DNA of 64,000 bases from an uncultured Candidatus Saccharibacteria bacterium. GTDB taxonomy: Bacteria; Patescibacteriota; Minisyncoccia; UBA6257; WO2-44-18. Positions 642 through 55,458 of this stretch are shown here, piece after piece. Location of the stretch: assembly GCA_964637575.1 (NCBI GenBank), contig CAZWVU010000003.1, positions 1,586 through 65,585 of the forward strand, read 5' to 3'. Position 1 is the first letter of the stretch. Each line of letters begins with the position of its first letter. The translations under genes and the position numbers were made by a program. The notes under the pieces were generated by a model. That model searched no databases and was not told the origin of the DNA. It saw nothing but the letters and a program-made list of their open reading frames with translations.

Positions 642-1313
642 ATGGAAAAACCCATCGTGAGCCCCAAGCAGATGCCCGTGCACAAGGTGCTCGGGCGGGT
701 CGCCGAGTGGTACCGGATGATGTCGGAAGCCGGCCTGGCCTTTGACGATCTCCAGCGCGCCATTGACGATCCGGATTTCCGGAGCCGTCTGGTGGAGTTC
801 TGGAAAAAGGACGGGAAAAAAGTGGTTTCCAGCGCCAAGTTTCCAATCTGGCGTACCCTAAAACTCGGCACCGGCCACCAGACCGCCGACGACTTCCGGA
901 AAGTTATCAAGAAGGCCAACTGCAAGATCTCCGACTGGGCCAACGACATCCTCGGCAAACCGGATTTCACCGCATCCACCGAAGAGCAGGAAGTGGAGCT
1001 GGTCGTGGCTTCGGTCGCCGAGCTGGGCTTCCCCAACGGTGCCACCCGCGAAAAGATCTACGCCAAAGCCAAGGAGCTTGGCCTGGATCTCTGTCCGGCA
1101 GAAGTTGGTCCCCAGCTCCGCCTCCAGTACAAGGATCAGCCGATGAACGAATGGCTCCTTATTGGAATGGAGCCCATCACTGACTCGGTCGGCAGTCTCG
1201 AGGTGTTCTACGTTGAGCGCGATGGCGGCGGCCGGTGGCTCAGCAGCTACTGTGACGGCGCCGACGGCGTCTGGCACGGCGCCTACCGCTGGGTGTTTGT
1301 CCGTCGCAAGTAG
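642..1313 (+). CDS. DGR target (variable) protein, 223 aa, no signal peptide
   Basis: The last ~130 nt (VR) are a near-repeat of the downstream TR, with substitutions confined to TR adenine positions. The C-terminus reads ...RWVFVRRK. Confidence 0.8.
   Translation: MEKPIVSPKQMPVHKVLGRVAEWYRMMSEAGLAFDDLQRAIDDPDFRSRLVEFWKKDGKKVVSSAKFPIWRTLKLGTGHQTADDFRKVIKKANCKISDWANDILGKPDFTASTEEQEVELVVASVAELGFPNGATREKIYAKAKELGLDLCPAEVGPQLRLQYKDQPMNEWLLIGMEPITDSVGSLEVFYVERDGGGRWLSSYCDGADGVWHGAYRWVFVRRK
1180..1310 (+). repeat. DGR variable repeat (VR) at 3' end of target gene
   Basis: Aligns base-for-base with 1563-1692. About 21 mismatches, every one at a position that is A in the TR (e.g. gac gac gac -> ggc ggc ggc; aac -> tac/agc/cac). 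The conserved GC-rich 3' end ctgggtgtttgtcc matches an IMH-like region. Confidence 0.85.
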
Positions 1314-1350
1314 CTTCGGACATCTGGAACCCTGGCTCCTGGTTACCCAT

Positions 1351-1389
1351 CCCCCGTGAAGCATTGCTTCACGGGGGATTTCTTTTTTG
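1351..1389 (+). terminator. GC hairpin plus T-run about 40 nt downstream of VR
   Basis: cccccgtgaagcattgcttcacggggg followed by atttctttttt. Reads as a Rho-independent terminator of the target gene. In a DGR context it may also be the stem-loop that aids retrohoming. Confidence 0.6.
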
Positions 1390-1562
1390 TTAGATTATTT
1401 TTGGAGTGGGTTGGTATTTGTTCACGGCTACGGCTTTGAGCGGCCGATTCCAAAATAAAAATGAAGCTATTTGGTGTAGGGCGCTAGGGCATTTTAGATG
1501 CCGAACGCGATACAGCTCCAAGAGCATTCAAGGAGCGGTGGCTTGGAGGGCGCCCTATACGC

Positions 1563-1692
1563 AACTGACTCGGACGGCAATCTCAAGGTGTTCAACGTTG
1601 AACGCAATGACGACGACCGGTGGCTCAACAGCAACTATGACAACGCCGACAACGTCTGGAACGGCGACAACCGCTGGGTGTTTGTCCGACGC
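1563..1692 (+). repeat. DGR template repeat (TR)
   Basis: Non-coding copy of the VR. The ORF-track 'ORF' 1498..1797 is merely its translation. It is Asn/AAC-rich where the VR is variable. A hairpin ctctcccgattatctcgggagag plus T-run follows at 1706-1740. Confidence 0.85.
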
Positions 1693-1714
1693 AACTTGCT
1701 TCATTCTCTCCCGA

Positions 1715-1975
1715 TTATCTCGGGAGAGTTTGTTTTTCAGCCGCTTTTATCCAACTGCCGAGCATTTTGCCAACCTCAACCAGGTTTTTGGATATAAGAA
1801 TATATTTTTTTTCATCCAGCGCCTTTAAATCCCAGGAAAACTGCAAGAAAAACTTTAAAATGTCCAATTTGCCGCTGGTTTTATTGAGAATAGGAAGTTT
1901 GTGTTCTTTATTCAGCTTGCTTGCCACAAAAAGTAATTCCAGAATCTCTATCAGCAAAGAATCTATTTTTATCAC
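1715..1975 (-). CDS. avd: Accessory variability determinant (Avd)-like four-helix-bundle protein
   Basis: The C-terminal LVEVGKMLGSWIKAAEK matches the conserved Avd / TIGR02436-type C-terminal helix. Similarity continues in-frame upstream to ~2080 (…IAIYKLWDNFKNHFPKRFKSL…) with no canonical ATG/GTG/TTG start, so the true start is uncertain. Length would be ~118 aa if extended. Confidence 0.55.
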   Translation of the reverse strand: MIKIDSLLIEILELLFVASKLNKEHKLPILNKTSGKLDILKFFLQFSWDLKALDEKKYILISKNLVEVGKMLGSWIKAAEKQTLPR

Positions 1976-2096
1976 CAGTGATTTGAATCGCTTCGGAAAG
2001 TGGTTTTTAAAATTATCCCAAAGTTTATATATCGCGATAAACTTATTGATAATAATTAAATTTCCCGAGAGAGAGAGAGTTCAAGGATTCTTCATT

Positions 2097-3155
2097 ATGA
2101 AAATTCAATTGCGACATAAGTTGGAAGATATAATTTCCGTGGAAAATCTTTTGATTGCCTGGAAGGAATTCCTGAAAGGGAAGCGAAGCAAGCCCGACGT
2201 CCAGGAATTCGGCCTGAATTTATTTGATAACATTCTACTTCTCCACCAAGAATTAGCCAATGGCAGCTATGTCCACGGCCAATATTATCGTTTCACTATC
2301 TCCGACCCGAAGCCGCGGATCATCCACAAAGCTGAAGTCCGCGACCGCCTCCTCCATCACGCCATCCACCGGGTCCTCTATCCGTTTTTTGAAAAGACAT
2401 TTATCGCCGATTCCTTTTCCTGCCGCGTGGAGAAAGGCACGCACCGCGCCATGAAACGGTTCCGCTCGTTCGCCTATCAGGTAAGCAAGAATCATACCCG
2501 GACCTGTTGGGTGCTGAAGTGCGATATCAAAAAGTTCTTTGACAGTATTGACCATTCCGTTCTGTTGGGGATTCTGGAATCATATATCCCCGACCGGCGC
2601 ACTATTGCGCTTCTCAAGAATATTATCAGCAGTTTTTCCGTGGCGCCCGGCAAGGGCCTGCCGCTCGGCAATCTCACCTCCCAGCTCTTCGCCAATGTCT
2701 ATATGAATCAATTTGATCAGTTTATGAAACACACGCTCAAAGCCCGGCATTATATCCGCTATGCCGACGACTTTGCAGTGCTTTCTCGCGAGAAAGCACT
2801 GCTGGAAGAACTTATTCCCGAGATCGGTGATTTTCTGGATAAGCGACTCAAGCTTATGCTCCACCCCGACAAAGTGTTTATCAAAACCTTCGCCTCCGGC
2901 GTGGATTTTCTCGGCTGGGTTCATTTTCCTGACCATCGGCTACTGCGGACGACTACTAAGAGGAGAATGCTGAAACGCCTTGCCGAGAATCCAAGCAATG
3001 AGGCCAGGCAGTCGTATCTTGGATTATTGAAGCATGGGAATACTATCAAGATACGAAAAAGCGAACCCCTCCTTCCCGCAGACAGGATTGTGGCCCGACG
3101 TCCTGGCGAGGAGAAGGAGGGGTTCGTTGAGATTGCCGCGCTTCGCTCGCAATGA
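2097..3155 (+). CDS. DGR-type reverse transcriptase
   Basis: RT motifs are present: PKPRIIHKA, SCRVEKGTHRA, GLPLGNLTSQLFANVYMNQFD (the DGR-specific Q..F.N.Y in motif 4), and YADDF. AAGGA RBS lies 9 nt before ATG 2097. The annotated ORF start at 1767 is a low-complexity upstream extension. Confidence 0.9.
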   Translation: MKIQLRHKLEDIISVENLLIAWKEFLKGKRSKPDVQEFGLNLFDNILLLHQELANGSYVHGQYYRFTISDPKPRIIHKAEVRDRLLHHAIHRVLYPFFEKTFIADSFSCRVEKGTHRAMKRFRSFAYQVSKNHTRTCWVLKCDIKKFFDSIDHSVLLGILESYIPDRRTIALLKNIISSFSVAPGKGLPLGNLTSQLFANVYMNQFDQFMKHTLKARHYIRYADDFAVLSREKALLEELIPEIGDFLDKRLKLMLHPDKVFIKTFASGVDFLGWVHFPDHRLLRTTTKRRMLKRLAENPSNEARQSYLGLLKHGNTIKIRKSEPLLPADRIVARRPGEEKEGFVEIAALRSQ

Positions 3156-3177
3156 CGACAAGAGTATAATAGAGGTA

Positions 3178-3525
3178 ATGTCATTTTCCGTAGTCTATCT
3201 CTTGCAGCGGTTTTTCTATCGTATCTATGAAGCCATCCGGCACTGGTACAGGGACGGATTTTTGTGGTTTGTCCACCATACGCTGAATGTGCTGGAAGGA
3301 CTGGATCGGACATTCGCCCTCCGGATTACGTTCCGCTACTGGCTGAAACCGCTCTACCAGGATTACACGGTCATCGGCTACATTCTGGGATTTATTTTCC
3401 GGACGTTTCGTTTGGTGATCGGGGGATTTGTCTACCTGGTAATCATACTCGCAGCGCTCCTGCTCTACCTCGTGTGGGCGGCAATCCCGATTTACATTGT
3501 ATATAAAGGATTCAATGGCCAATAG
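3178..3525 (+). CDS. Small hydrophobic membrane protein (hypothetical)
   Basis: 115 aa ORF with 2-3 predicted TM segments; TATAAT-like box sits just upstream. No homology recognised. Confidence 0.4.
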   Translation: MSFSVVYLLQRFFYRIYEAIRHWYRDGFLWFVHHTLNVLEGLDRTFALRITFRYWLKPLYQDYTVIGYILGFIFRTFRLVIGGFVYLVIILAALLLYLVWAAIPIYIVYKGFNGQ

Positions 3526-5965
3526 AGAAATATATTTCAACGATCCGCGGCTGAAAATGACCATCGCCGGCCGGCTGATTGTCCGGCTCGGCGCGTATGC
3601 CGGTTACGCCCTGCTGGTCGTGGGCGCCGCCATGTTTCTTGCCGGCGACGTCCGGCTTCTCCGGGCGTTCGGTCTGCTCCTTATGCTTTTTCTTGCCGAC
3701 CGCGCCGCGCATGCCCGGAAATCGGAAAAAAATATCCTCCGGCTCCCCGAGGGGAAGATCAACGCGGCATCATATTGCGCTCCGGCAAGTTTCGGGGTGC
3801 TGGAGTGGGCGTTTGACCGGGCGCTCTTTTCCGGGAAAAACTTTTACCTGTTTCTGGCGCAACGTTTGCTGAACCGCCACGACGTCCAGGCGGGGCTTGT
3901 CCGCATGGACGTGAAGCCGGGCGACATGAAGAACCGGATCGAGGCGGCGCTCCGGGAATCTTCCGCCGCGAGCACCTCCAAAAATCAGCTCTTGTATAAA
4001 GTGGGCGTGGTAACTGCCCAGGCAATCGGGACGGCGTACCGGCTTCACGATCCGCAGATCGACCCGAAAGATCTTTTTGCGGCACTGGCGCTGGTGGAGG
4101 ACGAGGATTGCAGGCGCCTCTTCGGATCTTTCAACATCGCTCCGGGCGATCTTCAGAATGCGATGGTATTCAGCGCCGGTCCGGGGCGGAACCTCACCGG
4201 ATTTTTGAGCCGGCCCCATAAAACCCGCCACCGGATTATGAACCGGGCCTGGACTGCCCGCCCGACGCCATATCTTGATCAGGTTTCCTCCGATCTTACT
4301 GATCTGGCGCGGCTTGGGCAGATCGGAATGCTCATCGGACACGAGCAGGAATATGACCGCCTCCTGGACGTGCTTTCCCGTCCCGGCCGGCCGAACGCGC
4401 TCCTTGTGGGCGACGCCGGCTCGGGTAAATCGAGCGTGGTGGAGCATCTGGCGTTTGAAATCAGCAAAGACCGGGTCCCGCCGCAGCTGTTTGACCGCCG
4501 TCTGGTGAAGCTGGATATCGGCAGTCTGGTCGCGGGAGCCGGAGAAAGTGAAATGCAGGCGCGGACAAAAAAGATTCTGGAAGAAATTGTCCGGGCCGGA
4601 AATATCATTCTCTATATTCCCGACATCCATAATTTAATGAAAACGGCCGGCGGGCGGGGAGTCTCCGCCGCGGATATGCTGGTGCCCGCGATCAAATCCG
4701 GCGCCTTTTCGGTAATCGGCGGCACGTATTCCCAGGAATACAAGCAGTATATTGAAACGAACAGCGATTTTGCCGGTGGATTTGAAACGATCCGCGTGCA
4801 GGAGGTCAGCGAAGACGAAGCGGCGCAGTATCTGGTGTATGAAAGCCTGCTCCTCGAGCGGCAGTATCGCATCATCATCAGTTTTGCCGCGGTAAAGGAG
4901 GCGGTGGTTCTTGCCAAGCAGTATTTTCACGGGAAACTGCTCCCGGCGAGCGCCGAGGACCTCCTAAAAGAAGCCCTTGCCGACGCGGCGGGCAAACGGC
5001 GGAAAGTGCTTGGCGCGGACGACGTGATCGCGGTCGCGGAAAAGAAAATCAACGTGCCGATCCACAAGGCCGGAAAAGAGGAGGCGGAAACCCTTCTCAA
5101 TCTTGAAGAGGTGATCCATGCGCGGCTGATTGACCAGGAAGAGGCGGTGCGCGCGGTGTCCCGGGCGCTCCGCGAGTACCGGAGCGGCCTTGCCAGAAAA
5201 GGCGGGCCGATCGCCAGTTTTCTTTTTGTCGGCCCCACCGGAGTCGGGAAAACAGAACTTTCCAAAATTCTTGCCGGGATCCAGTTCGGATCGGCGGAGA
5301 TGATGGCGCGGTTCGATATGTCGGAATACCAGGACAAAGGCACGGTAAACCGGCTGCTGGAAAATGTTACCGACGCCATCCGCCAGCGGCCGTACAGCCT
5401 CGTTCTTCTCGATGAATTTGAAAAAGCTCATCCCGACATCCTGAATCTGTTTTTGCAGGTGCTCGACGATGGGCGGCTCACCGACGCCGCCGGGCGCACA
5501 GTGGATTTCCAAAACACCATTGTCATCGCGACCAGCAATGCCAACTCCGATTTTATCAAGGCGGAGCTTGAGAAGGGTGCCGATGTCAGGACGCTGTCGG
5601 AGGCGGTGAAGAAAAAACTCACCGGGTTTTTCAAGCCGGAGCTGTTGAACCGGTTTTCGGGCATCATTGTCTTCAAGCCCCTTTCTTCCGCCGCTATTGA
5701 GCGGATTGCCGGCATCCAGCTTTCGGAAGTGGCGGAAACCCTTCGACAATCCCAGGGGATAGAATTACAATTTGATGATGAGGTAGTGCGGGAGATTGCC
5801 AGGCGGGGGTTTGACCCGGTGTTCGGCGCCCGCCCGCTCCGGGGCGTCATCTCCGAGCAGGTGCGCGGGGTGCTGGCCGAAAAGATTCTCCGCGGGGAAG
5901 TCGCCCGCGGCAGCCGGATTAAAGCAGTAATGAGCAACGGCGCCCTCCAATTCAAAAATGTTTAA
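3515..5965 (+). CDS. Clp/Hsp100-family double AAA+ ATPase (ClpC/ClpB-like) with N-terminal transmembrane segment
   Basis: Two Walker A motifs (GDAGSGKSS; GPTGVGKTE) and LLDEFEKAH. A Clp_N-like repeat follows two N-terminal hydrophobic helices. AAAGGA RBS precedes ATG 3515. Confidence 0.85.
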   Translation: MANREIYFNDPRLKMTIAGRLIVRLGAYAGYALLVVGAAMFLAGDVRLLRAFGLLLMLFLADRAAHARKSEKNILRLPEGKINAASYCAPASFGVLEWAFDRALFSGKNFYLFLAQRLLNRHDVQAGLVRMDVKPGDMKNRIEAALRESSAASTSKNQLLYKVGVVTAQAIGTAYRLHDPQIDPKDLFAALALVEDEDCRRLFGSFNIAPGDLQNAMVFSAGPGRNLTGFLSRPHKTRHRIMNRAWTARPTPYLDQVSSDLTDLARLGQIGMLIGHEQEYDRLLDVLSRPGRPNALLVGDAGSGKSSVVEHLAFEISKDRVPPQLFDRRLVKLDIGSLVAGAGESEMQARTKKILEEIVRAGNIILYIPDIHNLMKTAGGRGVSAADMLVPAIKSGAFSVIGGTYSQEYKQYIETNSDFAGGFETIRVQEVSEDEAAQYLVYESLLLERQYRIIISFAAVKEAVVLAKQYFHGKLLPASAEDLLKEALADAAGKRRKVLGADDVIAVAEKKINVPIHKAGKEEAETLLNLEEVIHARLIDQEEAVRAVSRALREYRSGLARKGGPIASFLFVGPTGVGKTELSKILAGIQFGSAEMMARFDMSEYQDKGTVNRLLENVTDAIRQRPYSLVLLDEFEKAHPDILNLFLQVLDDGRLTDAAGRTVDFQNTIVIATSNANSDFIKAELEKGADVRTLSEAVKKKLTGFFKPELLNRFSGIIVFKPLSSAAIERIAGIQLSEVAETLRQSQGIELQFDDEVVREIARRGFDPVFGARPLRGVISEQVRGVLAEKILRGEVARGSRIKAVMSNGALQFKNV

Positions 5966-6590
5966 CAATATCAATAAAATCATCAAGACAATCGTCGTCG
6001 TCGATTTTTTCTATAACTCGGCGTTCGCGTCCTTCGCGCCGGTGTTCGCGCTGTTCATCACCAGCCACATCCATAACGGCACTGCGGCGGTGGCCGGCTT
6101 CGCGGTTTCGGTCTACTGGATTACGAAATCGATTTTCCAGCTTCCGATCGCCCGCTTCCTCGACCGGACGGACGGCGAGCGCGACGATTACTGGGCAATG
6201 ATGGGCGGATATTTTTTCAGCGGACTCATCCCGTTCGCCTATCTCTTCGTGTCCGAGCCGTGGCATCTGTATCTCGTGAACGGCATCTACGGGTTTATCA
6301 TGGCCTGGACCGTGCCCGCCTGGTACTCCATTTTTACTCGCCACGTGGATAAATGGCGGATCAGTTTCGAGTGGAGCCTGGAAAGCGTGTTCGCCGTCGG
6401 CATTGCCACCGCCGGGGCTTCGGCGCTCGGGGGCTGGCTGGTGGATCAGTTCGGGTTTCGCGTGCTCTTCATCGGTGCCGGAATTATCGGATCGTCCTGC
6501 GCGCTCCTGTTTCTTACCCTGCGGAAGCATCTGTTCCAGCGCGAAAGCGATTCCCGCGCCATTCCGGAGCGGCCGCATCAGCAGAAGTAG
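5958..6590 (+). CDS. MFS-type transporter, N-terminal 6-TM half only
   Basis: Six TM helices and a motif-A-like loop (ARFLDRTDGERDD). The gene ends 4 nt before polX, so no C-terminal half is encoded. Confidence 0.55.
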   Translation: MFNNINKIIKTIVVVDFFYNSAFASFAPVFALFITSHIHNGTAAVAGFAVSVYWITKSIFQLPIARFLDRTDGERDDYWAMMGGYFFSGLIPFAYLFVSEPWHLYLVNGIYGFIMAWTVPAWYSIFTRHVDKWRISFEWSLESVFAVGIATAGASALGGWLVDQFGFRVLFIGAGIIGSSCALLFLTLRKHLFQRESDSRAIPERPHQQK

Positions 6591-6593
6591 TCC

Positions 6594-8345
6594 ATGAAAA
6601 AAGTTTTGAATAACCAGGAAATAGCCCGGATACTTTATGAGATCGGGGAATATTTGGACATGCAGAAGGTTCCCTTCAAGCCGCGGGCGTATGAAAAGGC
6701 TGCGGAAAGCGTGGAGTCGCTGGGAGAAGCGCTGACCGAACTTTATGCGCGCGGCGGCATAAAAGCTGTACATGGAATACCCCACGTGGGCGCCTCCATC
6801 GCGGAAAAAATCGAGGAATTGCTGAAGAGCGGCCGTCTGAAATACTATGAGGATTTAAAAAAACGCGCCCCGGTGGATCTCTCCTCCCTCACGCAGATTC
6901 AGGGGCTGGGACCGCAGAAAATCAGGGTCTTATATGAGAAGCTGAAGGTCCGGAGCGTCGAAGATCTTGAGCGGGCGATTGCTTCGGGAAAGGTGGCCGC
7001 GCTTCCGGGGTTTGGATCAAAAAGCGCTGAAAATATTTCAAAAGGTATCGAGTTCCTGAAGCATTCCCATGGGCGCTTTCTTCTGGGTTCTGTGCTGCCG
7101 GGAGTTTTCGCCGTGCGTGACCGCCTCAAAAAATTGCGGGAGGTGAAAAAGATTGAAATCGCGGGGTCGGTGCGCCGCTGGAGAGAGACGATCGGCGATG
7201 CGGATCTGGTGGTAGTTTCCGACAACCCGAAACCGGTGATGGACTATTTCACGTCGATGCCGGGGATCGCGATGGTGATCGGGCACGGCGATACGAAGTC
7301 CTCCATTAAATTAAGGAATGGACTTCAGATGGATCTCCGGGTAGTTCCGGAAGAGTCTTACGGCGCGGCGCTCGCGTATTTTACCGGCTCCAAAGAACAC
7401 AATATCGAATTGCGGCAGATCGCCATTGAAAAAGGATTCACGCTGAATGAATACGGGTTGTACCGCGGCGCTGCGGCGCGGAAAGGAAAACTCATCGCCG
7501 GCCGCACGGAAGAAGAATTATACCGGGCTCTCGGGCTCGAATATATCCCTCCGGAAATCAGGGAGATGCACGGGGAGATCGAAGCCGCCCGGAAGCACGC
7601 GCTCCCCGATCTCGTCGGCTATGGCGATCTCAAAGGGGATCTGCAGGTGCAGACGGGTTGGACCGACGGCGACCATTCGATTGAGACCATGGCGCTTGCC
7701 GCGAAAGAATACGGATTCCAATACATTGCTATTACCGATCACACCCAGCGTCTCGCGATGACCGGCGGTCTAAACGAGAAGAAGATCCTGAAACAGATTG
7801 CGGAAATCGACCGTCTTAATCGCCAATTTAAAAATAAAAATTTACAATTTAAGATTCTGAAAGGCACCGAGTGCGATATTCTGGAGGATGGCAGTCTGGA
7901 TCTGCCGGACCGGGTGCTTGCAAAGCTTGATGTGGTCGGCGCATCAGTGCACTCGCTGTTCAATCTTTCCAAAGACAAACAGATGGCGCGGATTAAAAAA
8001 GCCATGCGTAATAAGCATGTCGATATCTTTTTCCATCCCACCGGCCGGTTGATTCACCGGCGGGAGCCGTATGCGGTGGATATCGATGGAATTATCAAAA
8101 CCGCCAAAGAAACGGGTACGGTGCTTGAGATCGACGGATCGCCGGACAGGCTTGATCTGAAAGACGATTATATTAGAAAGTGCGTGGAGGCGGGCGTGAA
8201 GATGTCGGTGGATTCCGACGCCCACGGCAAGGAACAATACCGGTTCACCCAGTATGGGATCGCCCAGGCGAGGAGAGGGTGGGCGACCAAAAAAGACATC
8301 ATCAATTGCTGGCCGGCCGACACTATGCTAAACATGCTTAAATAA
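6594..8345 (+). CDS. polX: DNA polymerase X family protein with C-terminal PHP phosphoesterase domain
   Basis: Pol beta-like HhH and palm motifs at the N-terminus; PHP His/Asp motifs (ITDHTQ…, DSDAHG) at the C-terminus. Confidence 0.85.
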   Translation: MKKVLNNQEIARILYEIGEYLDMQKVPFKPRAYEKAAESVESLGEALTELYARGGIKAVHGIPHVGASIAEKIEELLKSGRLKYYEDLKKRAPVDLSSLTQIQGLGPQKIRVLYEKLKVRSVEDLERAIASGKVAALPGFGSKSAENISKGIEFLKHSHGRFLLGSVLPGVFAVRDRLKKLREVKKIEIAGSVRRWRETIGDADLVVVSDNPKPVMDYFTSMPGIAMVIGHGDTKSSIKLRNGLQMDLRVVPEESYGAALAYFTGSKEHNIELRQIAIEKGFTLNEYGLYRGAAARKGKLIAGRTEEELYRALGLEYIPPEIREMHGEIEAARKHALPDLVGYGDLKGDLQVQTGWTDGDHSIETMALAAKEYGFQYIAITDHTQRLAMTGGLNEKKILKQIAEIDRLNRQFKNKNLQFKILKGTECDILEDGSLDLPDRVLAKLDVVGASVHSLFNLSKDKQMARIKKAMRNKHVDIFFHPTGRLIHRREPYAVDIDGIIKTAKETGTVLEIDGSPDRLDLKDDYIRKCVEAGVKMSVDSDAHGKEQYRFTQYGIAQARRGWATKKDIINCWPADTMLNMLK

Positions 8346-8963
8346 ATGGCGCCTACCACAGGAATTTTAGGATTAGTGAATCATTACGGCTACCTGGCCA
8401 TTTTTCTACTCGTATTCTTACAGGAGATCGGCATCCCGAATATTGTGCCCAATGAACTCATTCTCCTTTTCGCGGGCGCTCTCACGGTGATCGGCGGATT
8501 AAGCTTCTGGCTGACATTTTTGACCGCGGTATCGGCTGACGTGATCGGCACCACCATCCTTTTTTCCGTGTTCTACTTTTTCGAGCGCTATATCATGGAA
8601 AAAATTTCCAAATGGAAAGGCATGAACGAAAAACTGGACCGGCTTAAAGAAACGATTCTCCGCCGCGGCGGGTGGGGAATTTTCCTTGGCCGGATGATGC
8701 CGTACCTTCGGGGATATGTTTCGATCGCGGCCGGCATCCTGAATATTCCTTACAGAAAATTTCTGCCCATGGTGATCATTCCGGCGATACTCTGGACCGG
8801 CGGCTATGTGACGCTCGGGCATTTCCTCGGCAAAAAATGGGAGGTGGTAGCGGGTTTCATTCATCAATACGAATGGATCCTTCTCGTGGCGGTAGTTATC
8901 ATTATCATTAATGTCTGGTATTGGAAAAACCGGAAGAAGCGGATTGATCAGCTGCAAAGATAA
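8346..8963 (+). CDS. DedA/TVP38-family membrane protein
   Basis: LQEIGIPNIVPNE plus multiple TM segments are typical of DedA. Confidence 0.75.
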   Translation: MAPTTGILGLVNHYGYLAIFLLVFLQEIGIPNIVPNELILLFAGALTVIGGLSFWLTFLTAVSADVIGTTILFSVFYFFERYIMEKISKWKGMNEKLDRLKETILRRGGWGIFLGRMMPYLRGYVSIAAGILNIPYRKFLPMVIIPAILWTGGYVTLGHFLGKKWEVVAGFIHQYEWILLVAVVIIIINVWYWKNRKKRIDQLQR

Positions 8964-18991: not shown

Positions 18992-19438
18992 TTAGGATTT
19001 CAATGTCCGGCGGATCTCGCGGCTGGTTTCCCTCTTCTTTATAACTTCCCGCTTCTCAAATTGTTTCTTGCCGCGGGCGAGTCCCAGCTCAACCTTGATC
19101 CGACCGGCCTTACTATACAACTTTAAAGGCACTAATGTCAAGCGGTCGGACTTCATTTTCCCGATTAAATAAGTGATTTCTTTCTTGTGTAATAACAAAC
19201 GGCGCGAACGCGTCGGATCGTAGTCCTCCGGAGTATTTTTCGGCTGGTAGGGCGGGATATCGGCGCCGGTGAGCCAGAGCTGATTGTCTTTGACGGTCGC
19301 GAACGCACCGGCGATATTTCCCCGTCCGGCCTTCGCTGACTTCACTTCGTAGCCCTTGAGCTCAACCCCGGCCTCAAAACGCTCCACGATCTCGTAGTTG
19401 AAATACGCTTTTCTATTTTCTGACAATGCTTCGGACAT
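18992..19438 (-). CDS. smpB: SsrA-binding protein SmpB
   Basis: Full-length SmpB homology (…GYEVKS…LLLHKKEI…). Confidence 0.9.
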   Translation of the reverse strand: MSEALSENRKAYFNYEIVERFEAGVELKGYEVKSAKAGRGNIAGAFATVKDNQLWLTGADIPPYQPKNTPEDYDPTRSRRLLLHKKEITYLIGKMKSDRLTLVPLKLYSKAGRIKVELGLARGKKQFEKREVIKKRETSREIRRTLKS

Positions 19439-20911: not shown

Positions 20912-22471
20912 ATGATTCAGAGGATTGAAGCAGTGATAAAAAAAGTAGTGGGCGAGAAGAAATTTCTGGTGACGGCTTCGGATAAGCCGGAATTCGGGCA
21001 TTATTCTACCAACGTCGCGTTTCAGATCCCGGGAAATACGGAGGATCTGGCCAAAAAAATTTTTGAAGCGGGCAAGGATCTTTTTGAAAAAGTGGAAGCC
21101 AAAGGAAAATTTATCAACTTCTGGCTTTCGCACAACGCGCTCGTGGAAGGCGTCGCGGAAGCGGTAAAACCGAAACTGAAAGCCGATAAAAAGCTGAAAA
21201 TAAACCTGGAGTTCGTCTCCGCCAACCCGACCGGACCGCTGACCATGGCCAACGGACGCGGCGGTTTTCTCGGTGACGCGCTGGCGAATGTCTTGGAAGC
21301 GGTCGGCCACAAGGTTACGCGTGAATACTATATAAATGACGCCGGGAATCAGGTACGCCTGCTCGGCGAGAGCGTGCTTGCCACGCTGGGAAAGACGGAA
21401 TCCAAAGAAGGGCATTACAAAGGAGAGTATGTAAAATCCCTCGCCAAAGAACTGGAGAAAAAAATAAAAAACAACGATGCGATGAAGGCGGGTCAACTGG
21501 CGGCGGCGGCTTTATTGAAAGAAATCCAGCAATCACTGAAAAAAGCCGGCATCAACTACGACGTCTGGTTTTCGGAGCAGAAAAATCTTCGGCAAAAAGA
21601 CGAGATCCAAAAAGTTCTGGACATGTTGGATACATCTGGCTTGGTGGAAAAGAAGGAGGGCGCGGTCTGGTTAAAAAGCCCCGACATTTCCGAGGATAAA
21701 GACCGTGTGCTGGTGAAGTCCGACGGTAATCCGACATATTTTCTCGCGGACACAGCGTATCATTACGACAAATTTATAAAACGGAAATTTGATCTCGTGA
21801 TAGATATCTGGGGCGCCGATCACCATGGCTATGTGGCGCGGCTGAAGAGCGGCGTGAAGGCAGTCGGCGTCGACCCGGGCCGCTTGAAGATTCTGATTAC
21901 CCAGCTGGTGCGGCTCACGGAGAACGGCCAGGAGGTGAAGATGTCCAAGCGGACGGGAACATTCGTGACGATGGATGAACTGATTGAAGAGGTCGGCTCT
22001 GACGCCGCGCGGTTCTTCTTCCTGATGCACGCGCCGGAAACGCATATGGATTTTGATCTGGCGCTCGCGAAAGAGAAGTCGCAGAAGAATCCGGTCTACT
22101 ACGCGCAGTACGCGTATGTGCGATGTGGCAGCATAATTACCAAGGCTCTAAATTTGAAATTTAAAATTAAAAATTTAAAATTGAGTTCGGATTGGGACTT
22201 GCTCAAGGCGGAGAGCGAGCTTCAGCTCATGCGCGAGCTGGTGAAGCTGCCGGATCTCATCTGGCAGACGGCGCAGGATTATCAGGTGAGCCGCCTTGCG
22301 CGCTACGCACTGGAAGTTGCGCGCGGACTCAACAACTTCTATGAAAAAGAGCGGGTGATCATTGACGATAAAGAACTCATGAGTGCGCGGCTCGGCCTCG
22401 TGGCCGCGACACGGGAAGTCCTCGCCAAAGTTTTGGATCTGCTGGGACTTTCCAAGCCAGAGCGGATGTAA
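20912..22471 (+). CDS. argS: Arginyl-tRNA synthetase
   Basis: Class I aaRS with ArgRS-specific anticodon-binding C-terminus (…YAQYAYVRCGSII…). Contains a ~33 nt AT-rich in-frame insert at 22150-22183 (LNLKFKIKNLKL). Confidence 0.9.
   Translation: MIQRIEAVIKKVVGEKKFLVTASDKPEFGHYSTNVAFQIPGNTEDLAKKIFEAGKDLFEKVEAKGKFINFWLSHNALVEGVAEAVKPKLKADKKLKINLEFVSANPTGPLTMANGRGGFLGDALANVLEAVGHKVTREYYINDAGNQVRLLGESVLATLGKTESKEGHYKGEYVKSLAKELEKKIKNNDAMKAGQLAAAALLKEIQQSLKKAGINYDVWFSEQKNLRQKDEIQKVLDMLDTSGLVEKKEGAVWLKSPDISEDKDRVLVKSDGNPTYFLADTAYHYDKFIKRKFDLVIDIWGADHHGYVARLKSGVKAVGVDPGRLKILITQLVRLTENGQEVKMSKRTGTFVTMDELIEEVGSDAARFFFLMHAPETHMDFDLALAKEKSQKNPVYYAQYAYVRCGSIITKALNLKFKIKNLKLSSDWDLLKAESELQLMRELVKLPDLIWQTAQDYQVSRLARYALEVARGLNNFYEKERVIIDDKELMSARLGLVAATREVLAKVLDLLGLSKPERM
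22150..22183 (+). repeat. AT-rich short repeat element (in-frame within argS)
   Basis: aaatttgaaatttaaaattaaaaatttaaaatt. A near-identical 20-mer aaatttaaaattaaaaattt recurs in tsaD; related copies sit at 7826-7856, 28936-29040 and 45509-45612. Confidence 0.6.
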
Positions 22472-24073: not shown

Positions 24074-27000
24074 ATGTTGAAAGGGCTCAAGCAGTTCAAT
24101 CTTCCTGAACTTGAGGAAAAGGTGCTGAAATTCTGGAAAGACCACAATATTTTCGGGAAGTCGCTCGAGCTTCGCGGAAAAGCGAAGCCTTTCCGGTTTT
24201 TTGAAGGGCCTCCGACCGCCAACGGCCGTCCGGGCCTCCATCATGTGCTCGCCCGGGCCTTCAAAGATATCATCTGCCGTTATAAGCAGATGAAGGGTTT
24301 TTTCGTGCTCCGGCGCGCCGGTTGGGACACGCACGGATTGCCGGTGGAAATTGAGGTGGAAAAAAAGCTCGGGATCAAACACAAGCAGGAAATTGAAAAA
24401 TTCGGCATCGCGGAATTCAACGCCCAGGCGAAAATGTCCGTCTGGACGTACAAAAGCGACTGGGAAAAACTTACCGAACGCATCGGCTTCTGGCTCGACT
24501 TCGATCATCCCTACATTACCTATGACAACAAATACATTGAATCGCTCTGGTGGGTGTTTTCGGAAATCGACAAACGCGGCCTGCTGAACAAGCTTCACAA
24601 AATCGTGCCGTGGTGCCCGCGCTGCCAGACGGCGCTTTCCAATCACGAACTCGGCCAGCCCGGCGCGTACCGGACCGCCAAAGACCCGTCGGTCTATGTG
24701 AAATTCCGGCTTAAGGGAAAGTCCGCCAAAGGCGGATCGGCCTCCGGTGGAAAAAAGGAACATGAATATCTGCTGGTCTGGACGACGACGCCCTGGACCC
24801 TGCCCGCGAATGTCGCGGTGGCAGTGAATCCCGGCCTCACCTATACCAAATATAAAGTGGGCGACGAATTTTACTGGAGCTATCATACCCCGCCGGTCCA
24901 CGCCGGAAAGGACGGGCGCAAGGAGGAGATGGAAGTAGTGGAAAAACTTTCCGGGAAAAAACTGGTGGGCGAGCAGTATGAGCCCCTCTATCCGAATGAG
25001 GGTGCTCACGAGGTGCTTGGCGCGGGCTTTGTTTCCACCGAAGAAGGGACGGGACTGGTGCACATCGCGCCGGCGTACGGCGAAGACGATCTGCGGGTTG
25101 CCGGCAAGGGGCCGGTGCCGGTTACCATTAACGACGAGGGGAAGATGCTCAAAGGATTTCCAGGCGCCGGGAAATTCATCAAGCAGGCCGACGATGATAT
25201 TATTGCCGATCTGGAAGCGCGCGGGTTTTTATACTCCAAGAGCACCATCGAACACGAATATCCGTTTTGCTGGCGCTGTTCCACGCCGCTTATTTATTTC
25301 GCGCGCAAATCCTGGTTCATCGAGATCAGTAAGCTCAACAAGGAAATGCTGGAAGCGAACCAGAAGATCAACTGGATTCCCGAACATATCAAAGAGGGGC
25401 GTTTCGGCGAGTGGCTGAAAGATCCGAAAGACTGGTCCATTGCCCGTAACCGCTATTGGGGAACGCCGTTGCCGATCTGGGAGTGCGAAAAAAATCAGGA
25501 GCACCGGCTGTTTGTCGGTTCGCTCGAGGACCTGGATACGCACGCGTATAACCGCAACCGGTATTTTGTCGCCCGGCACTGCGAGGGGGAGCATAACGTA
25601 GCGGGCGTGCTTGCGTCCGGTCCGGAAAAAAACGGTCACGGCGCCAGACTGACGGAAAAAGGAACGGTGCAGGCGGAGAAGATCGCCATGGCGCTGAAAA
25701 AACCGGGCATCGACGTCATTTATTCCTCGCCGCTCAAGCGGGCGGTGGAAACCGCGAAGATTATTTCCAAAGCGACCGGCGCGCCGGTAAAAACAGACAA
25801 GCGTCTCAGTGAAGTCGAATTTGGCACGTTTAACGGAAGTCCGGTCGGAAAATACTGGGAATTTTTCGCGAATGACGCCGAGCGGTTCGTCAAAGCTCCT
25901 CCCGGAGGCGAGAATCTTAGCGATGTAAAAAAGCGGATGATCGAATTCTGGAAGGAAATTGACTCTGAAAACAGCGGAAAGAATATTCTGATCGTCAGCC
26001 ACGGCGATCCGATCTGGGTGATGGAGGGGGCAATGAGCGGCCTGAATAATCAGGAGATTGAAAAAGCCCCATATCTTAAGGTGGGCGAATACCGGGAAAC
26101 CGAATATCACAACTGGCCATTTTCCCAGGAGGGAGCGCTGGATATCCACCGGCCGTTCGTCGACGCGGTAATTTTGAAATGTCCGGAATGCGGCGAAAAA
26201 ATGCGGAGAATCAAGGAGGTAGCCGACGTCTGGTTCGACTCGGGCGCCATGCCGTTCGCCCAGTGGCACTATCCTTTCGAAAATAAAAAGCTGATCGATT
26301 CCGGCGCGCAGTTTCCGGCCGATTACATCGCCGAAGGAATGGATCAGACGCGTGGCTGGTTCTACACCCTTCTTGCCGTGTCCGTCCTGCTGGAACGCGG
26401 GTTGGCGTACCGCAACGTGATTTCGTTCGGATTGTTGCTGGATAAGAACGGGCAGAAGATGTCCAAATCAAAAGGTAACGTGGTGGACCCCTGGGATGTG
26501 ATTAAAAAATACGGCGCCGACGCGGTGCGCTGGTATTTCTATACCGTGAACGCGCCGGGTGAATATAAAAAATTTGACGAGCTCGATCTCGGCAAAACGC
26601 TCCGCAAAGTCTTTCTTCTCGCGTACAACTCGTTTGCGTTTTATCAGTTAAACAGCGACGCGAAAGACAAGCCGATCGCGGTATTGGACGAGTGGATTCT
26701 CGCCAGAACCCATCAGACAATAGAGGGGACCACCGCCAGATTGGAGCACTACGACGTCGGCGGCGCGGCCAAGCTCATCGAAGAGCTGGTGGATGACTGT
26801 TCCCGGTGGTACATCCGCCGGTCCCGGAAAAACGTATCGCCAAAAACCCTTGCGCTGGTACTGGGAGAGATTGCCAAATTAATGGCTCCCTTCGCGCCGT
26901 TTTTCAGCGAGGGACTCTATAAGTCGCTGACGGCCGACCCGAAGGCATCCGTTCACCTTGCCGACTGGCCGAAAGCCGACAAAAAGAAGATTAATAAAAA

Positions 27001-27499
27001 AATGCTCGAAGCCATGGCGGAAGTGCGCCGCGTTGCCAGCCTTGGTCTTTCCGAACGCGAAAAAGCGGGCATCAAGGTGCGCCAGCCGCTGGCCGCGTTA
27101 AAAGTAAAAAGTAAAAAGTTAAAAATTGCCGACAAGGAACTTCTGGAAATCCTGAAGGATGAAGTAAACGTAAAAGAGGTGGTTTTTGACCCGAAGATCC
27201 AGGGCGAGGTGGAGCTGGATACGAACATCACCGCCGAATTGAAAAATGAAGGAATCCTCCGCGATCTTGCCCGGACCATTCAGGGACTCCGCCATGACGC
27301 AAAATATCAGCCCAAGGACGCCATCGCGCTATTGCTTGATCTTCCCCCCGAGCTTCTGAAGATAATCGAAGTGCATGAGTCCACGCTTAAGAATATGGTG
27401 CATGCGAAGCAGGTAATATACCGCCGCGAAAAATTCGATGCGGAACTTTCAACCAAGCTGGACGATGCGGATATCTGGGTTGCGGTAAGAAAGGCCTAG
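24074..27499 (+). CDS. ileS: Isoleucyl-tRNA synthetase with inserted histidine-phosphatase (PGM-family) domain
   Basis: Class I motifs are present (P.TANGRPGLHHVL as HIGH-like; KMSKS at ~26460). A ~195 aa insert at ~25540-26130 carries RHCEGEHN, SSPLKRAVETA and IVSHGDPI. Confidence 0.9.
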   Translation: MLKGLKQFNLPELEEKVLKFWKDHNIFGKSLELRGKAKPFRFFEGPPTANGRPGLHHVLARAFKDIICRYKQMKGFFVLRRAGWDTHGLPVEIEVEKKLGIKHKQEIEKFGIAEFNAQAKMSVWTYKSDWEKLTERIGFWLDFDHPYITYDNKYIESLWWVFSEIDKRGLLNKLHKIVPWCPRCQTALSNHELGQPGAYRTAKDPSVYVKFRLKGKSAKGGSASGGKKEHEYLLVWTTTPWTLPANVAVAVNPGLTYTKYKVGDEFYWSYHTPPVHAGKDGRKEEMEVVEKLSGKKLVGEQYEPLYPNEGAHEVLGAGFVSTEEGTGLVHIAPAYGEDDLRVAGKGPVPVTINDEGKMLKGFPGAGKFIKQADDDIIADLEARGFLYSKSTIEHEYPFCWRCSTPLIYFARKSWFIEISKLNKEMLEANQKINWIPEHIKEGRFGEWLKDPKDWSIARNRYWGTPLPIWECEKNQEHRLFVGSLEDLDTHAYNRNRYFVARHCEGEHNVAGVLASGPEKNGHGARLTEKGTVQAEKIAMALKKPGIDVIYSSPLKRAVETAKIISKATGAPVKTDKRLSEVEFGTFNGSPVGKYWEFFANDAERFVKAPPGGENLSDVKKRMIEFWKEIDSENSGKNILIVSHGDPIWVMEGAMSGLNNQEIEKAPYLKVGEYRETEYHNWPFSQEGALDIHRPFVDAVILKCPECGEKMRRIKEVADVWFDSGAMPFAQWHYPFENKKLIDSGAQFPADYIAEGMDQTRGWFYTLLAVSVLLERGLAYRNVISFGLLLDKNGQKMSKSKGNVVDPWDVIKKYGADAVRWYFYTVNAPGEYKKFDELDLGKTLRKVFLLAYNSFAFYQLNSDAKDKPIAVLDEWILARTHQTIEGTTARLEHYDVGGAAKLIEELVDDCSRWYIRRSRKNVSPKTLALVLGEIAKLMAPFAPFFSEGLYKSLTADPKASVHLADWPKADKKKINKKMLEAMAEVRRVASLGLSEREKAGIKVRQPLAALKVKSKKLKIADKELLEILKDEVNVKEVVFDPKIQGEVELDTNITAELKNEGILRDLARTIQGLRHDAKYQPKDAIALLLDLPPELLKIIEVHESTLKNMVHAKQVIYRREKFDAELSTKLDDADIWVAVRKA

Positions 27500-27918: not shown

Positions 27919-28932
27919 TCAGGATAAACCGATTTTCTTTTTGACCGCCAGCATTTTTTTCTTGGCGATCTCATGGGCTTTTTTGGAGCCGGCAGCCAGC
28001 ATAGTTTTAACGGCTGTCATTTTCAGCTTCGCCTTTCGGGCGCGGAAAGGTTCACAATATTCAATGACCACTTCGGCGAGACGCTTCTTGAAATCCGCGT
28101 AACCTTTGCCGGAAAATTCCGCTTCCACCTCGGGAATAGTCAGTCCGGAGAGCTCGGAGTAGATCATCATCAGATTGGATACCGCAGCCTTATTCTGCGG
28201 ATCAAACTTCACTCCGCTGCCGGAGTCGGTAACCGCCGTTCGGATTTTCTTTTCAATTTCTTCGGGCGAATCACTAAGAAACAGGCATCCCGCCGGCCGC
28301 GATTTGGACATCTTTTTCGCCGGATCATCGAGCGACATTACGCGGGGGAGATTGGTGAGTAATTCCTTCGGTTCGGCGAACATTGGGCCGAATTTGGAAT
28401 TGAATTTGCGCGCCAGCGTGCGGACGAGCTCAAGATGCTGAAGCTGATCATGGCCGACCGGTACGAATTTCGCGTCAAACATCAACACGTCAGCAGCCAT
28501 CAATACCGGGTAGGCGAACAGGCCGACATTAATATTTTCCTTCTGATCGCCGGACTTATCTTTGAACTGCGTCATGCGGCTCAACTCTCCCATTGGAGTG
28601 ATGGTCTCCAGAATCCAGGCGAGTTCCGGGGCGTGATGGACGACGGATTGCTGGAAAATGACGGATTTTTTCGGATCCAGGCCGGCGGAGAGATAGCTCG
28701 CGGCCAAATCCAGAATCTGGGCCGACTTAATGGATGGATTCCAGTCGGAGACTGGTCCGCCTCCGGCGGAAAAATCCTCGGTCAGTGAGTGATAATCAGC
28801 GATGAAAAAGTAGCACTGGTATTTGCCGGAATTTTGGAGCGCGACGAAATTCTTGAGCGCGCCGAGATAGTTGCCGAGATGGAGCGGGCCAGTGGGTTGA
28901 ATGCCGGATATCAGGATAGGCTTAGAAGACAT
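27919..28932 (-). CDS. trpS: Tryptophanyl-tRNA synthetase
   Basis: GIQPTGPLHLGNYLG (HIGH region) and KMSKS motif. Confidence 0.9.
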   Translation of the reverse strand: MSSKPILISGIQPTGPLHLGNYLGALKNFVALQNSGKYQCYFFIADYHSLTEDFSAGGGPVSDWNPSIKSAQILDLAASYLSAGLDPKKSVIFQQSVVHHAPELAWILETITPMGELSRMTQFKDKSGDQKENINVGLFAYPVLMAADVLMFDAKFVPVGHDQLQHLELVRTLARKFNSKFGPMFAEPKELLTNLPRVMSLDDPAKKMSKSRPAGCLFLSDSPEEIEKKIRTAVTDSGSGVKFDPQNKAAVSNLMMIYSELSGLTIPEVEAEFSGKGYADFKKRLAEVVIEYCEPFRARKAKLKMTAVKTMLAAGSKKAHEIAKKKMLAVKKKIGLS

Positions 28933-28935
28933 AGC

Positions 28936-29040
28936 TTTAATTGTAAATTTTAAATTTGAAATTTACAATTTTTAATAAATGTCCAATTTGTAAATTTAAA
29001 AATTAGAATATTTAAAATTTTAAATTGGTAATTGAAAATT
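28936..29040. repeat. AT-rich repeat cluster in trpS promoter region
   Basis: Multiple aaatttgaaatttacaatt / aaatttaaaaatt units within an otherwise ~58% GC genome. Confidence 0.5.
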
Positions 29041-29044
29041 CTCG

Positions 29045-32313: not shown

Positions 32314-32324
32314 GGGAAAGTTTG

Positions 32325-32396
32325 TGCCGACGGGAGGGATCGAACCTCCGACCCGACGCTTATGAAACGTCTGCTCTGCCACTGAGCTACGTCGGC
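32325..32396 (-). tRNA. tRNA-Met (anticodon CAT; elongator or Ile2-type)
   Basis: Standard cloverleaf GCCGACG…UUCAUAA…CGUCGGCA. Confidence 0.8.
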
Positions 32397-33331: not shown

Positions 33332-33409
33332 GGTTGCGGGGGCGGGATTTGAACCCGCGATCTACAGGTTATGGGCCTGTCGAGATAGACCAAGCTTCTC
33401 CACCCCGCC
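33332..33409 (-). tRNA. tRNA-fMet-like initiator tRNA (anticodon CAT)
   Basis: Strong similarity to E. coli initiator tRNA (GCGGGGUGGAG…UUCAAAUCC.GCCCCCGCAACC), with A11:U24 and a mismatched 1:72 pair. Confidence 0.8.
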
Positions 33410-45508: not shown

Positions 45509-45612
45509 TTTTAAATTACAAATTTTAATTGAATTTTTAATGACTTAATGTTTTAAACATTGAATCATTGATTCAAAATTGAAAATTTCAAATTTAAAAT
45601 TTACAATCAATA
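45509..45612. repeat. AT-rich repeat cluster in hppA promoter region
   Basis: Contains aaaatttcaaatttaaaatttacaatc and related units. Confidence 0.5.
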
Positions 45613-45614
45613 CT

Positions 45615-55363: not shown

Positions 55364-55386
55364 CGCCTTAGTGCTGCATCTTAGTG

Positions 55387-55458
55387 TGGGTGCGCCTGGG
55401 ATCGAACCAGGGACCAGTCGTGTATAAGACGACCGCTCTGCCACTGAGCTACGCACCC
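55387..55458 (-). tRNA. tRNA-Ile (anticodon TAT/UAU)
   Basis: GGGUGCGUAGCUCAGUGGCAGAGC…GUCGU CUUAUAC ACGAC…; anticodon positions 34-36 = UAU. Confidence 0.75.

Follow-up and report, generated by a model that had tools for sequence, protein, structure and literature searches.

What kind of DNA gives rise to an AT-rich segment that is translated in the frame of one essential gene and recurs nearly unchanged in another? The question is raised by positions 22150 to 22183 of a 64,000-nt stretch (hereafter the window) of contig CAZWVU010000003.1 from an uncultured Candidatus Saccharibacteria bacterium, where such a segment lies on the forward strand within argS, the gene of arginyl-tRNA synthetase (ArgRS), and has its counterpart in tsaD. 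An initial annotation took it for an element of about 30 nt inserted in frame into argS, tsaD and probably polX and ileS, and proposed a short mobile or selfish repeat family resembling Rickettsia palindromic elements (RPEs). The best protein matches of the window are metagenome-assembled genomes named as Parcubacteria, in agreement with a genome of the Parcubacteria group (Patescibacteria). Our analysis identified the argS segment as a short tandem array in which a 7-nt unit is repeated in degenerate form, belonging to a class of heptanucleotide repeat cassettes that comprise 3 to 6 units and 21 to 40 nt.

Six heptanucleotide arrays in the window

The AT-only 20-mer AAATTTAAAATTAAAAATTT, reported initially as common to argS and tsaD, occurs exactly at 22157 and 61375, and the in-frame reading NLKFKIKN(L/F) given for the two copies was likewise correct. 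When copies were counted within the window, allowing up to three mismatches, the 20-mer was matched 14 times (0.05 expected) and the pattern AAATTTNAAATTTNAAATT 53 times (0.5 expected). Except for one weak match, all matches to the latter fell into the intervals 7824-7857, 22150-22183, 28938-29040, 45506-45609 and 61361-61394. Tandem Repeats Finder (TRF), which was used to call arrays, returned a period of 7 nt at each of six sites, with 3.6 to 5.3 copies and 72 to 94% matches. Four of these arrays lie within polX, argS, ileS and tsaD and two upstream of trpS and hppA; the latter agree with the annotated presence of related AT-only units in these promoter regions. The unit is AAATTTN, except in ileS, where it is AAAAGTN (AAAAGTA as called by TRF). 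The 7-nt periodicity of all sites had been overlooked in the initial annotation, which also placed the segments in a coding context of about 60% GC. We found a GC content of 0.54 for the window and of about 0.50 around the arrays, with about 0.65 at third codon positions (GC3) of the window genes. Neither Rfam families nor tRNA genes overlap the arrays.

A perfect (AAATTTA)n sequence encounters TAA once per 21 nt in each of the three frames, all of which give the cyclic peptide K-F-K-I-stop-N-L. The shared 20-mer is (AAATTTA)n after a change of TAA to AAA. Since it can be derived from the unit and such a stop-codon patch, it constitutes weak evidence for copy-and-paste between argS and tsaD, even though the two copies are alike in 26 of 27 nt. 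Exact matches to the 20-mer were present at at least 120 loci in public genomes, many of them chance matches in AT-rich genomes, and this sequence is therefore not specific; the loci listed did not include the window's own genome.

Codon usage within the arrays is far from that of the genome. In the four coding arrays together, G or C occupies 4 of 44 third positions, compared to a GC3 of 0.65 (P = 1.5e-14), and given the encoded peptides the codons chosen have P = 7.5e-8 in argS and P = 6.7e-5 in tsaD. Among the Leu codons of the window TTA and CTA account for 5% and 2%, respectively. These data show that it is the nucleotide and not the peptide level at which the arrays arise or are maintained.

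The argS array is composed of the successive units AAATTTG, AAATTTA, AAATTAA, AAATTTA and AAATTG (4.7 copies, 88% matches), translated in frame as LNLKFKIKNLKL. Compared to two syntenic relatives, both of which have AAA AAA ATA AAA at this site, it adds 7 amino acids, i.e. exactly 21 nt or three units; compared to ArgRS of C. jejuni the gain is about 4 amino acids. Positions 22154-22181 match a sigma-70-like site, TTGAAA-16-TAAAAT, in 10 of 12 nt. In sequence, the array looks like a promoter. Its predicted fold did not differ significantly from that of shuffled sequences (z = -1.2), and the gene following argS has AT islands of its own.

In tsaD the array (61361 to 61394, forward strand; 4.0 copies, 90% matches) is translated as NKNLKFKIKNF and extends the loop between HMEGH and VSGGHT. 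The lengthened spacer between EGH and VSGGHT noticed in the initial annotation was confirmed: the loop is 13 residues longer than in the T. maritima structure and 10 residues longer than in the closest relatives (80-82% identical; TsaD homologues P0002-P0004), which do not have the array. An AlphaFold model of TsaD shows the extra residues as coil with a predicted local distance difference test score (pLDDT) of 57-71, while the model mean is 91.7; the supposed placement in a surface loop is supported for TsaD, as a low-confidence coil on the model. The tsaD array was not promoter-like in the promoter scan, its fold did not stand out against shuffles (z = -0.8), and the genes following tsaD are located on the opposite strand. 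As the segments are missing from the closest relatives as well as from T. maritima TsaD and C. jejuni ArgRS, lineage-specificity was upheld at both sites and an ancestral low-complexity segment was rejected for argS and tsaD.

The polX array (7825 to 7856, forward strand; QFKNKNLQFKIL) is degenerate, with 4.6 copies and 72% matches, and overlaps FKILKGTE, a conserved strand of the PHP domain, in a gene whose PolX domains were confirmed. It adds 4 amino acids compared to PolX of T. thermophilus, whereas in the syntenic relative L187 (labels L020 to L188 denote comparison contigs or loci) ordinary sequence of equal length occupies the place. Orthologous sites carry the units AAATTTA (L127), AGGGTTT (L130) and AAAATTG (L151). 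The promoter scan returned TACAAT only, and the fold gave z = +1.3 versus shuffles. The ileS array (27100 to 27124, forward strand; unit AAAAGTN, peptide LKVKSKKLKI; 3.6 copies, 94% matches) sits in a native-length segment after VRQPL, without change in length compared to the solved IleS structure 8c8u. Length and pattern of this segment, L-K-[IV]-K-[NS]-x-K-L-K, are conserved in most Parcubacteria IleS among the matches listed. The array is identical in 28 of 30 nt to that of L187, whose IleS is 76% identical, and decayed in L188; it was not promoter-like and its fold gave z = +1.2. In-frame insertion, initially assigned to argS and tsaD and as probable to polX and ileS, thus stands for argS and tsaD and is not supported for polX and ileS, which are not lengthened compared to the syntenic relative.

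Further observations were made in these two genes. L188, the closest syntenic relative (compared to window positions 5958-8963), does not have polX between the genes of a major facilitator superfamily-like and a VTT-domain protein, which implies that PolX is dispensable and variably present in the clade. Within ileS (24074-27499) a histidine-phosphatase domain (Pfam His_Phos_1, motif ARHCEGEHN) is inserted at about 25.5-26.1 kb of the window; the insertion was found by Pfam in all 120 Parcubacteria homologues listed. Moreover, ileS (24722-24736) and trpS (28756-28770, reverse strand) contain a second kind of in-frame mini-insert, a 15-nt GC-rich palindrome, TCCGCC-NNN-GGCGGA, translated as S-A-x-G-G (GKSAKGGSASGGKK in ileS and FSAGGGP in trpS). 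In homologues (L161, L127, L179 and TsaD P0031) related hairpins (SAFGG, SASGG, PAGRQ) are found in loops next to heptamer arrays.

The two intergenic cassettes are AT-rich and contain AAATTTN arrays. That upstream of trpS (28933 to 29044, reverse strand) lies between the stop codon of RNase J and the start of trpS, and that upstream of hppA (45509 to 45614, forward strand) between nusA and hppA. They are homologous, aligning over about 120 nt up to the ATG, and their copies are alike in 39 of 42 nt. The trpS cassette includes TTGTAA-17-TACAAT (28968-28940), followed by the 7 nt TAAAGCT and the ATG at 28932. Upstream of hppA, TTGAAA (45579-45584) and TACAAT (45602-45607) are separated by 17 nt and followed by the 7 nt CAATACT and the ATG at 45615 (10 of 12 in the scan). 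The sigma-70 spacing of 16-18 nt between -35 and -10 was found upstream of trpS and hppA and in argS, but not in tsaD or ileS. No Shine-Dalgarno sequence precedes the trpS and hppA starts, and in many other genomes of the candidate phyla radiation (CPR) AAATTTN arrays finish 0-15 nt ahead of start codons. The best reading of the intergenic AT-only AAATTTN sequence is that of spacer and -10 part of predicted sigma-70-type promoters abutting the start codon; both cassettes are probably leaderless promoters, giving rise to putative leaderless mRNAs.

The trpS cassette further harbors a 12-bp perfect inverted repeat at about 28939-28970, ATTGTAAATTTT..AAATTTACAAT, which renders the promoter identical when read on either strand. 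This is the only cassette with a significant inverted repeat (z = -3.4). A perfect palindrome, TTGAATCATTGATTCAA, at 45560-45576 is situated just upstream of the hppA -35 element. Both palindromes could represent operators or bidirectional promoters. In L187, which does not have the trpS cassette, the RNase J stop and the trpS ATG are 8 nt apart, implying that the 112-nt cassette of the window is an indel. Elsewhere in the window, a -10-like hexamer 6-7 nt before the start and no Shine-Dalgarno sequence were observed for 18992-19438 (reverse strand), ileS at 24074 and 58241-59743 (reverse strand), whereas GGAGG-type sites are clear at other genes, which suggests that leaderless and leadered mRNAs coexist in this genome.

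Several other readings of the arrays were rejected. An assembly artefact is contradicted by an independent Logan assembly, which agrees at 100% identity over 8.9 kb, the tsaD array included, and by the presence of arrays in NCBI, ENA, JGI and Logan data. The segments are much too short for an intron or intein, are translated in frame and show no splicing features. A hairpin or palindrome was dismissed for the coding copies, which fold no better than shuffles.

Period 7 in related DNA and turnover of the arrays

Related DNA was collected as a set of 707 kb picked solely for encoding ArgRS or TsaD, or 637 kb after removal of duplicate loci. In the 707 kb, period 7 accounted for 56 of 100 arrays with at least three copies, compared to 13 arrays of period 6 and 4 of period 9. 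The 637 kb contained 48 period-7 arrays versus 3.4 in shuffled sequences preserving local composition. In CPR-titled loci, which derive from many CPR groups, 62 of 106 arrays had period 7 with the seed masked, compared to 12 of 55 arrays in non-CPR loci. Tandem repeats of Parcubacteria and other CPR DNA are mainly of period 7.

The 48 arrays are 21-40 nt long and seven of them are perfect; most units start with a run of A. Inside open reading frames (ORFs) of at least 200 amino acids, which cover 76% of the bases, 39 of the 48 were located, and in 35 of these 39 the A-rich strand is the sense strand. This shows that the arrays are as frequent in genes as outside, without genic depletion.

In Parcubacteria two protein regions are hypervariable, namely the ArgRS loop that follows YVRCxSIL.K and the TsaD loop that separates HMEGH from SGGHT; they are filled with translated 7-nt repeats, e.g. 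NLKFKILNLKL, KIFNFKFSIF, KSKVKSPKSKV, KSQIKQIQ and RIKNYELGIKK. KIFNFKFSIF corresponds to the reverse-complement frame of the array behind NLKFKILNLKL. At the DNA level the ArgRS site exhibits the units AAAGTTN, AGAATTN, AAAATCC, GAAAGTG, AAAAGCC and others, and differing units, such as AGGGTTT and AAATCCG, were likewise found in differing genomes at the PolX and IleS sites. This shows that the arrays use a few tolerant loops or hairpin-like segments in ArgRS, TsaD, IleS and PolX, with units varying by lineage.

Comparison of close relatives revealed how these sites change. L127 and L128 are 99.4-99.9% identical, but their cassettes at the IleS site are unrelated. That of L127 consists of (AGAATTA)2, a GC hairpin and further heptamers, and is 94% identical over 49 nt to a cassette in the ArgRS gene of L127. 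The L128 cassette is (AAATCCG)4.4, whose unit is also that of another array in the same gene. In TsaD or ArgRS proteins with more than 90% identity, the differences are mainly cassette swaps, e.g. KFKIKNLKLKI versus PSLRKAELRKGKQK. These comparisons show that the arrays turn over by block replacement and that sites of one genome can share sequence. In near-identical contig pairs other than L127/L128 the arrays were unchanged. As a separate observation, the Roizmanbacteria contig L020 contains at 2224-3390 six period-7 arrays with six units within 2 kb, in or just upstream of a 348-amino-acid ORF. The unit GAACGTA occurs both upstream of this gene and near its 3' end, which suggests local copying of arrays.

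Origin and maintenance of the arrays

We favor, with moderate confidence, the explanation that the arrays are heptanucleotide repeat cassettes which are created in the DNA itself and for which translation acts as a filter, with the AT-only version doubling as promoter DNA. The arrays would stem from copying errors during replication or repair, namely slipped-strand synthesis or template switching, and ectopic copying from one array to another. An event would survive only if it preserves the frame, as does the gain of 21 nt in argS. Translation would then filter the arrays in that stop codons are patched from TAA to AAA, giving the 20-mer common to argS and tsaD, and in that the sense strand comes to be the A-rich one, leading to Lys/Asn-rich hydrophilic peptides that may be tolerated in a surface loop.

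Several observations weigh against this explanation. Third positions of the ileS array are identical to L187 in 10 of 10 cases compared to 7 of 13 in the flanks, and a TsaD gene product only 71% identical is encoded with the same 25 nt of the array at the same site. For both instances of conservation, selection on the nucleotides would be no worse an explanation than neutral turnover. Furthermore, near-identical strains were not seen to differ simply by one or three units gained or lost; among them, only whole-cassette replacement was observed, and in one pair. Perfect arrays of 4-5 units are present in essential genes, and these could not be built by single-unit slippage without frameshift intermediates. 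In view of the conserved ileS and tsaD arrays, a sizeable probability has to be kept for selection on the nucleotides.

The conservation of ileS third positions amid diverged flanks and of the 25 nt in TsaD also forms part of the case for functional cis-elements under selection at the DNA or RNA level, i.e. intragenic promoters, UP-like elements or 7-bp-phased A-tracts recognized by a nucleoid or topology protein, which in a genome almost devoid of intergenic space would fill the role played elsewhere by repeats of the repetitive extragenic palindromic (REP) type. We consider this unlikely as a whole. Cis-elements would nevertheless be in keeping with AT-only synonymous sites despite a GC3 of 0.65, the persistence of arrays at the same protein sites over many lineages, the promoter match of the argS array in 10 of 12 positions, the intergenic arrays at start codons and the A-run with which most units open. 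However, the wide variation of units between sites and genomes makes a sequence-specific reader unlikely, and the array is absent or decayed in close relatives (argS and polX in L187, ileS in L188, tsaD in P0002-P0004). Neither the tsaD nor the ileS array resembles a promoter, and no downstream gene obviously needs an internal one: tsaD is followed by genes on the opposite strand, and the gene that follows argS is itself provided with AT islands. As, in addition, the distance of the arrays to the gene ends varies, a general function of in-gene arrays as promoters of the next gene was rejected. A broader version, in which a lineage-wide process of CPR bacteria writes and maintains 7-bp-periodic cassettes in promoters and essential frames and the nucleotides are selected, has in our estimate a small but real chance of being correct. 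It would involve a repair or replication activity copying heptamers in blocks, or a protein reading 7-bp-phased A-tracts, and the arrays might then represent a genome-organizing or regulatory element placed inside genes for want of intergenic space.

A discrete sequence of about 30 nt copied into its sites by a transposition-like mechanism, i.e. a small mobile or selfish element resembling RPEs or transposable elements of the miniature inverted-repeat type (MITEs), appears improbable to us. The interpretation of the initial annotation is only partly supported: recurrence and, at argS and tsaD, lineage-specificity were found, as were sharing and replacement of cassettes in a related genome, but defined ends, target duplication and a fold of the coding copies were not, and the units vary. 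The near-identity of the argS and tsaD copies and of the trpS and hppA cassettes, alignable over about 120 nt, would suit a mobile element, as would presence or absence between relatives and the 49-nt composite cassette common to ArgRS and IleS of L127, replaced by another at the IleS site of L128. Yet comparison of filled and empty tsaD and argS sites at the DNA level revealed no terminal inverted repeats, no target-site duplication, and thus no hallmarks of a MITE, nor conserved ends. Also speaking against mobility are the size far below the about 150 bp of RPEs, coding copies no better folded than shuffles, an internal structure that is a tandem repeat with many units, and a shared 20-mer explained by unit and stop-codon patch. 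Moreover, the polX array takes the place of equally long sequence, and the segment filled by the ileS array has its native length. The loci examined showed no transposase gene linked to an array, although no systematic search was made.

Selection at the protein level, in which Lys/Asn-rich loops are favored in tRNA-binding enzymes, e.g. for extra RNA contacts, and the AT-rich DNA is a mere image of the coding requirement, is very unlikely. Three of the four host proteins (ArgRS, IleS and TsaD) bind tRNA, 35 of 39 arrays are A-rich on the sense strand, and peptide pattern and length of the IleS segment are conserved over the clade. A peptide requirement, however, does not yield a 7-nt period, and the codons are far from genome usage, as seen from the rarity of TTA and CTA and from 4 of 44 GC-ending codons. 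Arrays also reside in PolX and in non-coding DNA, the closest relatives manage without the loop, and the TsaD insert is modeled as low-confidence coil. Programmed -1 ribosomal frameshifting was rejected and has a negligible probability. The sequence A_AAT_TTA, of the slippery form X_XXY_YYZ, does occur in frame 0 of argS, tsaD and polX, but because the three frames share one cyclic peptide, this pattern is not an independent coincidence. Past the argS array the -1 frame comprises 55 Ala/Gly/Arg-rich codons and then a stop, no stimulatory structure is predicted downstream, and other units, among them AAAAGTC and AAATCCG, do not have the slippery form.

Repeat units that are not a multiple of three are normally kept out of essential genes, because a change in copy number breaks the frame. 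In the ultra-small CPR bacteria they are equally common inside genes, with AT-only synonymous sites and block swaps between strains. If the arrays are a mutational by-product, this would point to an unusual replication or repair property in a very large and little-studied share of bacterial diversity, and to a steady supply of new surface loops for core enzymes. If the nucleotides are selected, a regulatory or chromosome-organizing signal would be embedded in coding sequence. In either case the arrays may mark probable leaderless promoters in genomes whose promoters are unknown and may account for many Lys/Asn-rich "low-complexity" inserts of CPR proteins.

Apart from the arrays, the window contains at 642-3155 a diversity-generating retroelement with a variable repeat (VR, 1179-1309), a template repeat (TR, 1564-1694) and a reverse-transcriptase ORF (1767-3155; Pfam RVT_1, E 3e-24). 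VR and TR form a 131-nt direct repeat with 85% identity, whose mismatches nearly all pair an A in the second copy with another base in the first. Similar A-specific repeat pairs were found in L134, L172 and L179. Genes predicted for tRNAs include a tRNA-Ile with anticodon TAT (55386-55458) and two with CAT anticodons (32324-32396 and 33332-33409); a tRNA-Ile with a UAU anticodon is unusual among bacteria.

Comparison with known repeat systems

RPEs are palindromic sequences of about 150 bp found in unrelated housekeeping genes, where they are translated in frame in a way that the fold of the protein accommodates (PMC10969869). The arrays of the window are likewise short repeated DNA translated in frame in housekeeping genes, and insertions that are in frame and tolerated by the fold were found in tsaD and argS, while the ileS array adds no length. 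Unlike RPEs, which form defined families, the coding arrays are 21-40 nt long, consist of many 7-nt units and show no significant fold (z from -1.2 to +1.3). Considering size, fold, tandem structure and the two of four genes that are not lengthened compared to the syntenic relative, the likeness to RPEs proposed in the initial annotation is superficial.

REP sequences and bacterial interspersed mosaic elements (BIMEs) are GC-rich extragenic palindromes mobilized by REP-associated tyrosine transposases (RAYTs). Similar to these and to what have been termed "putative mobile promoters", the arrays are short repeats occurring about once per 5-13 kb. Near-identical promoter-bearing segments before unrelated genes, as seen for trpS and hppA, are a further likeness to putative mobile promoters. 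In contrast to REPs, the coding arrays are neither palindromic nor restricted to extragenic DNA, and a linked RAYT-type enzyme was not encountered in the loci examined, although no systematic search was conducted.

A heptanucleotide tandem repeat within a promoter region, as in front of trpS and hppA, is known from the hmw genes of H. influenzae, where (ATCTTTC)n is located between the promoters P2 and P1 and its copy number sets expression (PMC8262952). These repeats are long perfect arrays of 13-24 copies, vary between isolates and switch a surface adhesin (PMC8262952). The trpS and hppA arrays differ in being short and degenerate, in preceding housekeeping genes and in showing no copy-number variation. 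In the same way, the window arrays do not qualify as phase-variable contingency loci, being short, degenerate and in essential genes, with no variation in unit number among near-identical pairs.

In the literature found, whose coverage was incomplete so that an earlier description is possible, nothing linked 7-nt repeats or in-frame repeat inserts to CPR bacteria; we could not find the heptanucleotide repeat class in CPR genes and promoters described for this group. Elsewhere, 7-nt tandem repeats are known as the short tandemly repeated repetitive (STRR) sequences of cyanobacteria, which have other units (e.g. CCCCAGT), are longer and mostly intergenic, and long simple sequence repeats (SSRs) with units of 5-11 bp have reportedly been surveyed by Mrazek and co-workers. 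Both STRRs and these SSRs are over-represented in certain bacterial lineages and have no established function. The arrays reported here share with them 7-nt tandem units over-represented in a lineage; unlike STRRs they are short and degenerate, have an A-rich sense strand and reside mostly in essential genes. With head-to-tail units in excess over both chance and other periods, the nearest formal class is the heptanucleotide SSR.

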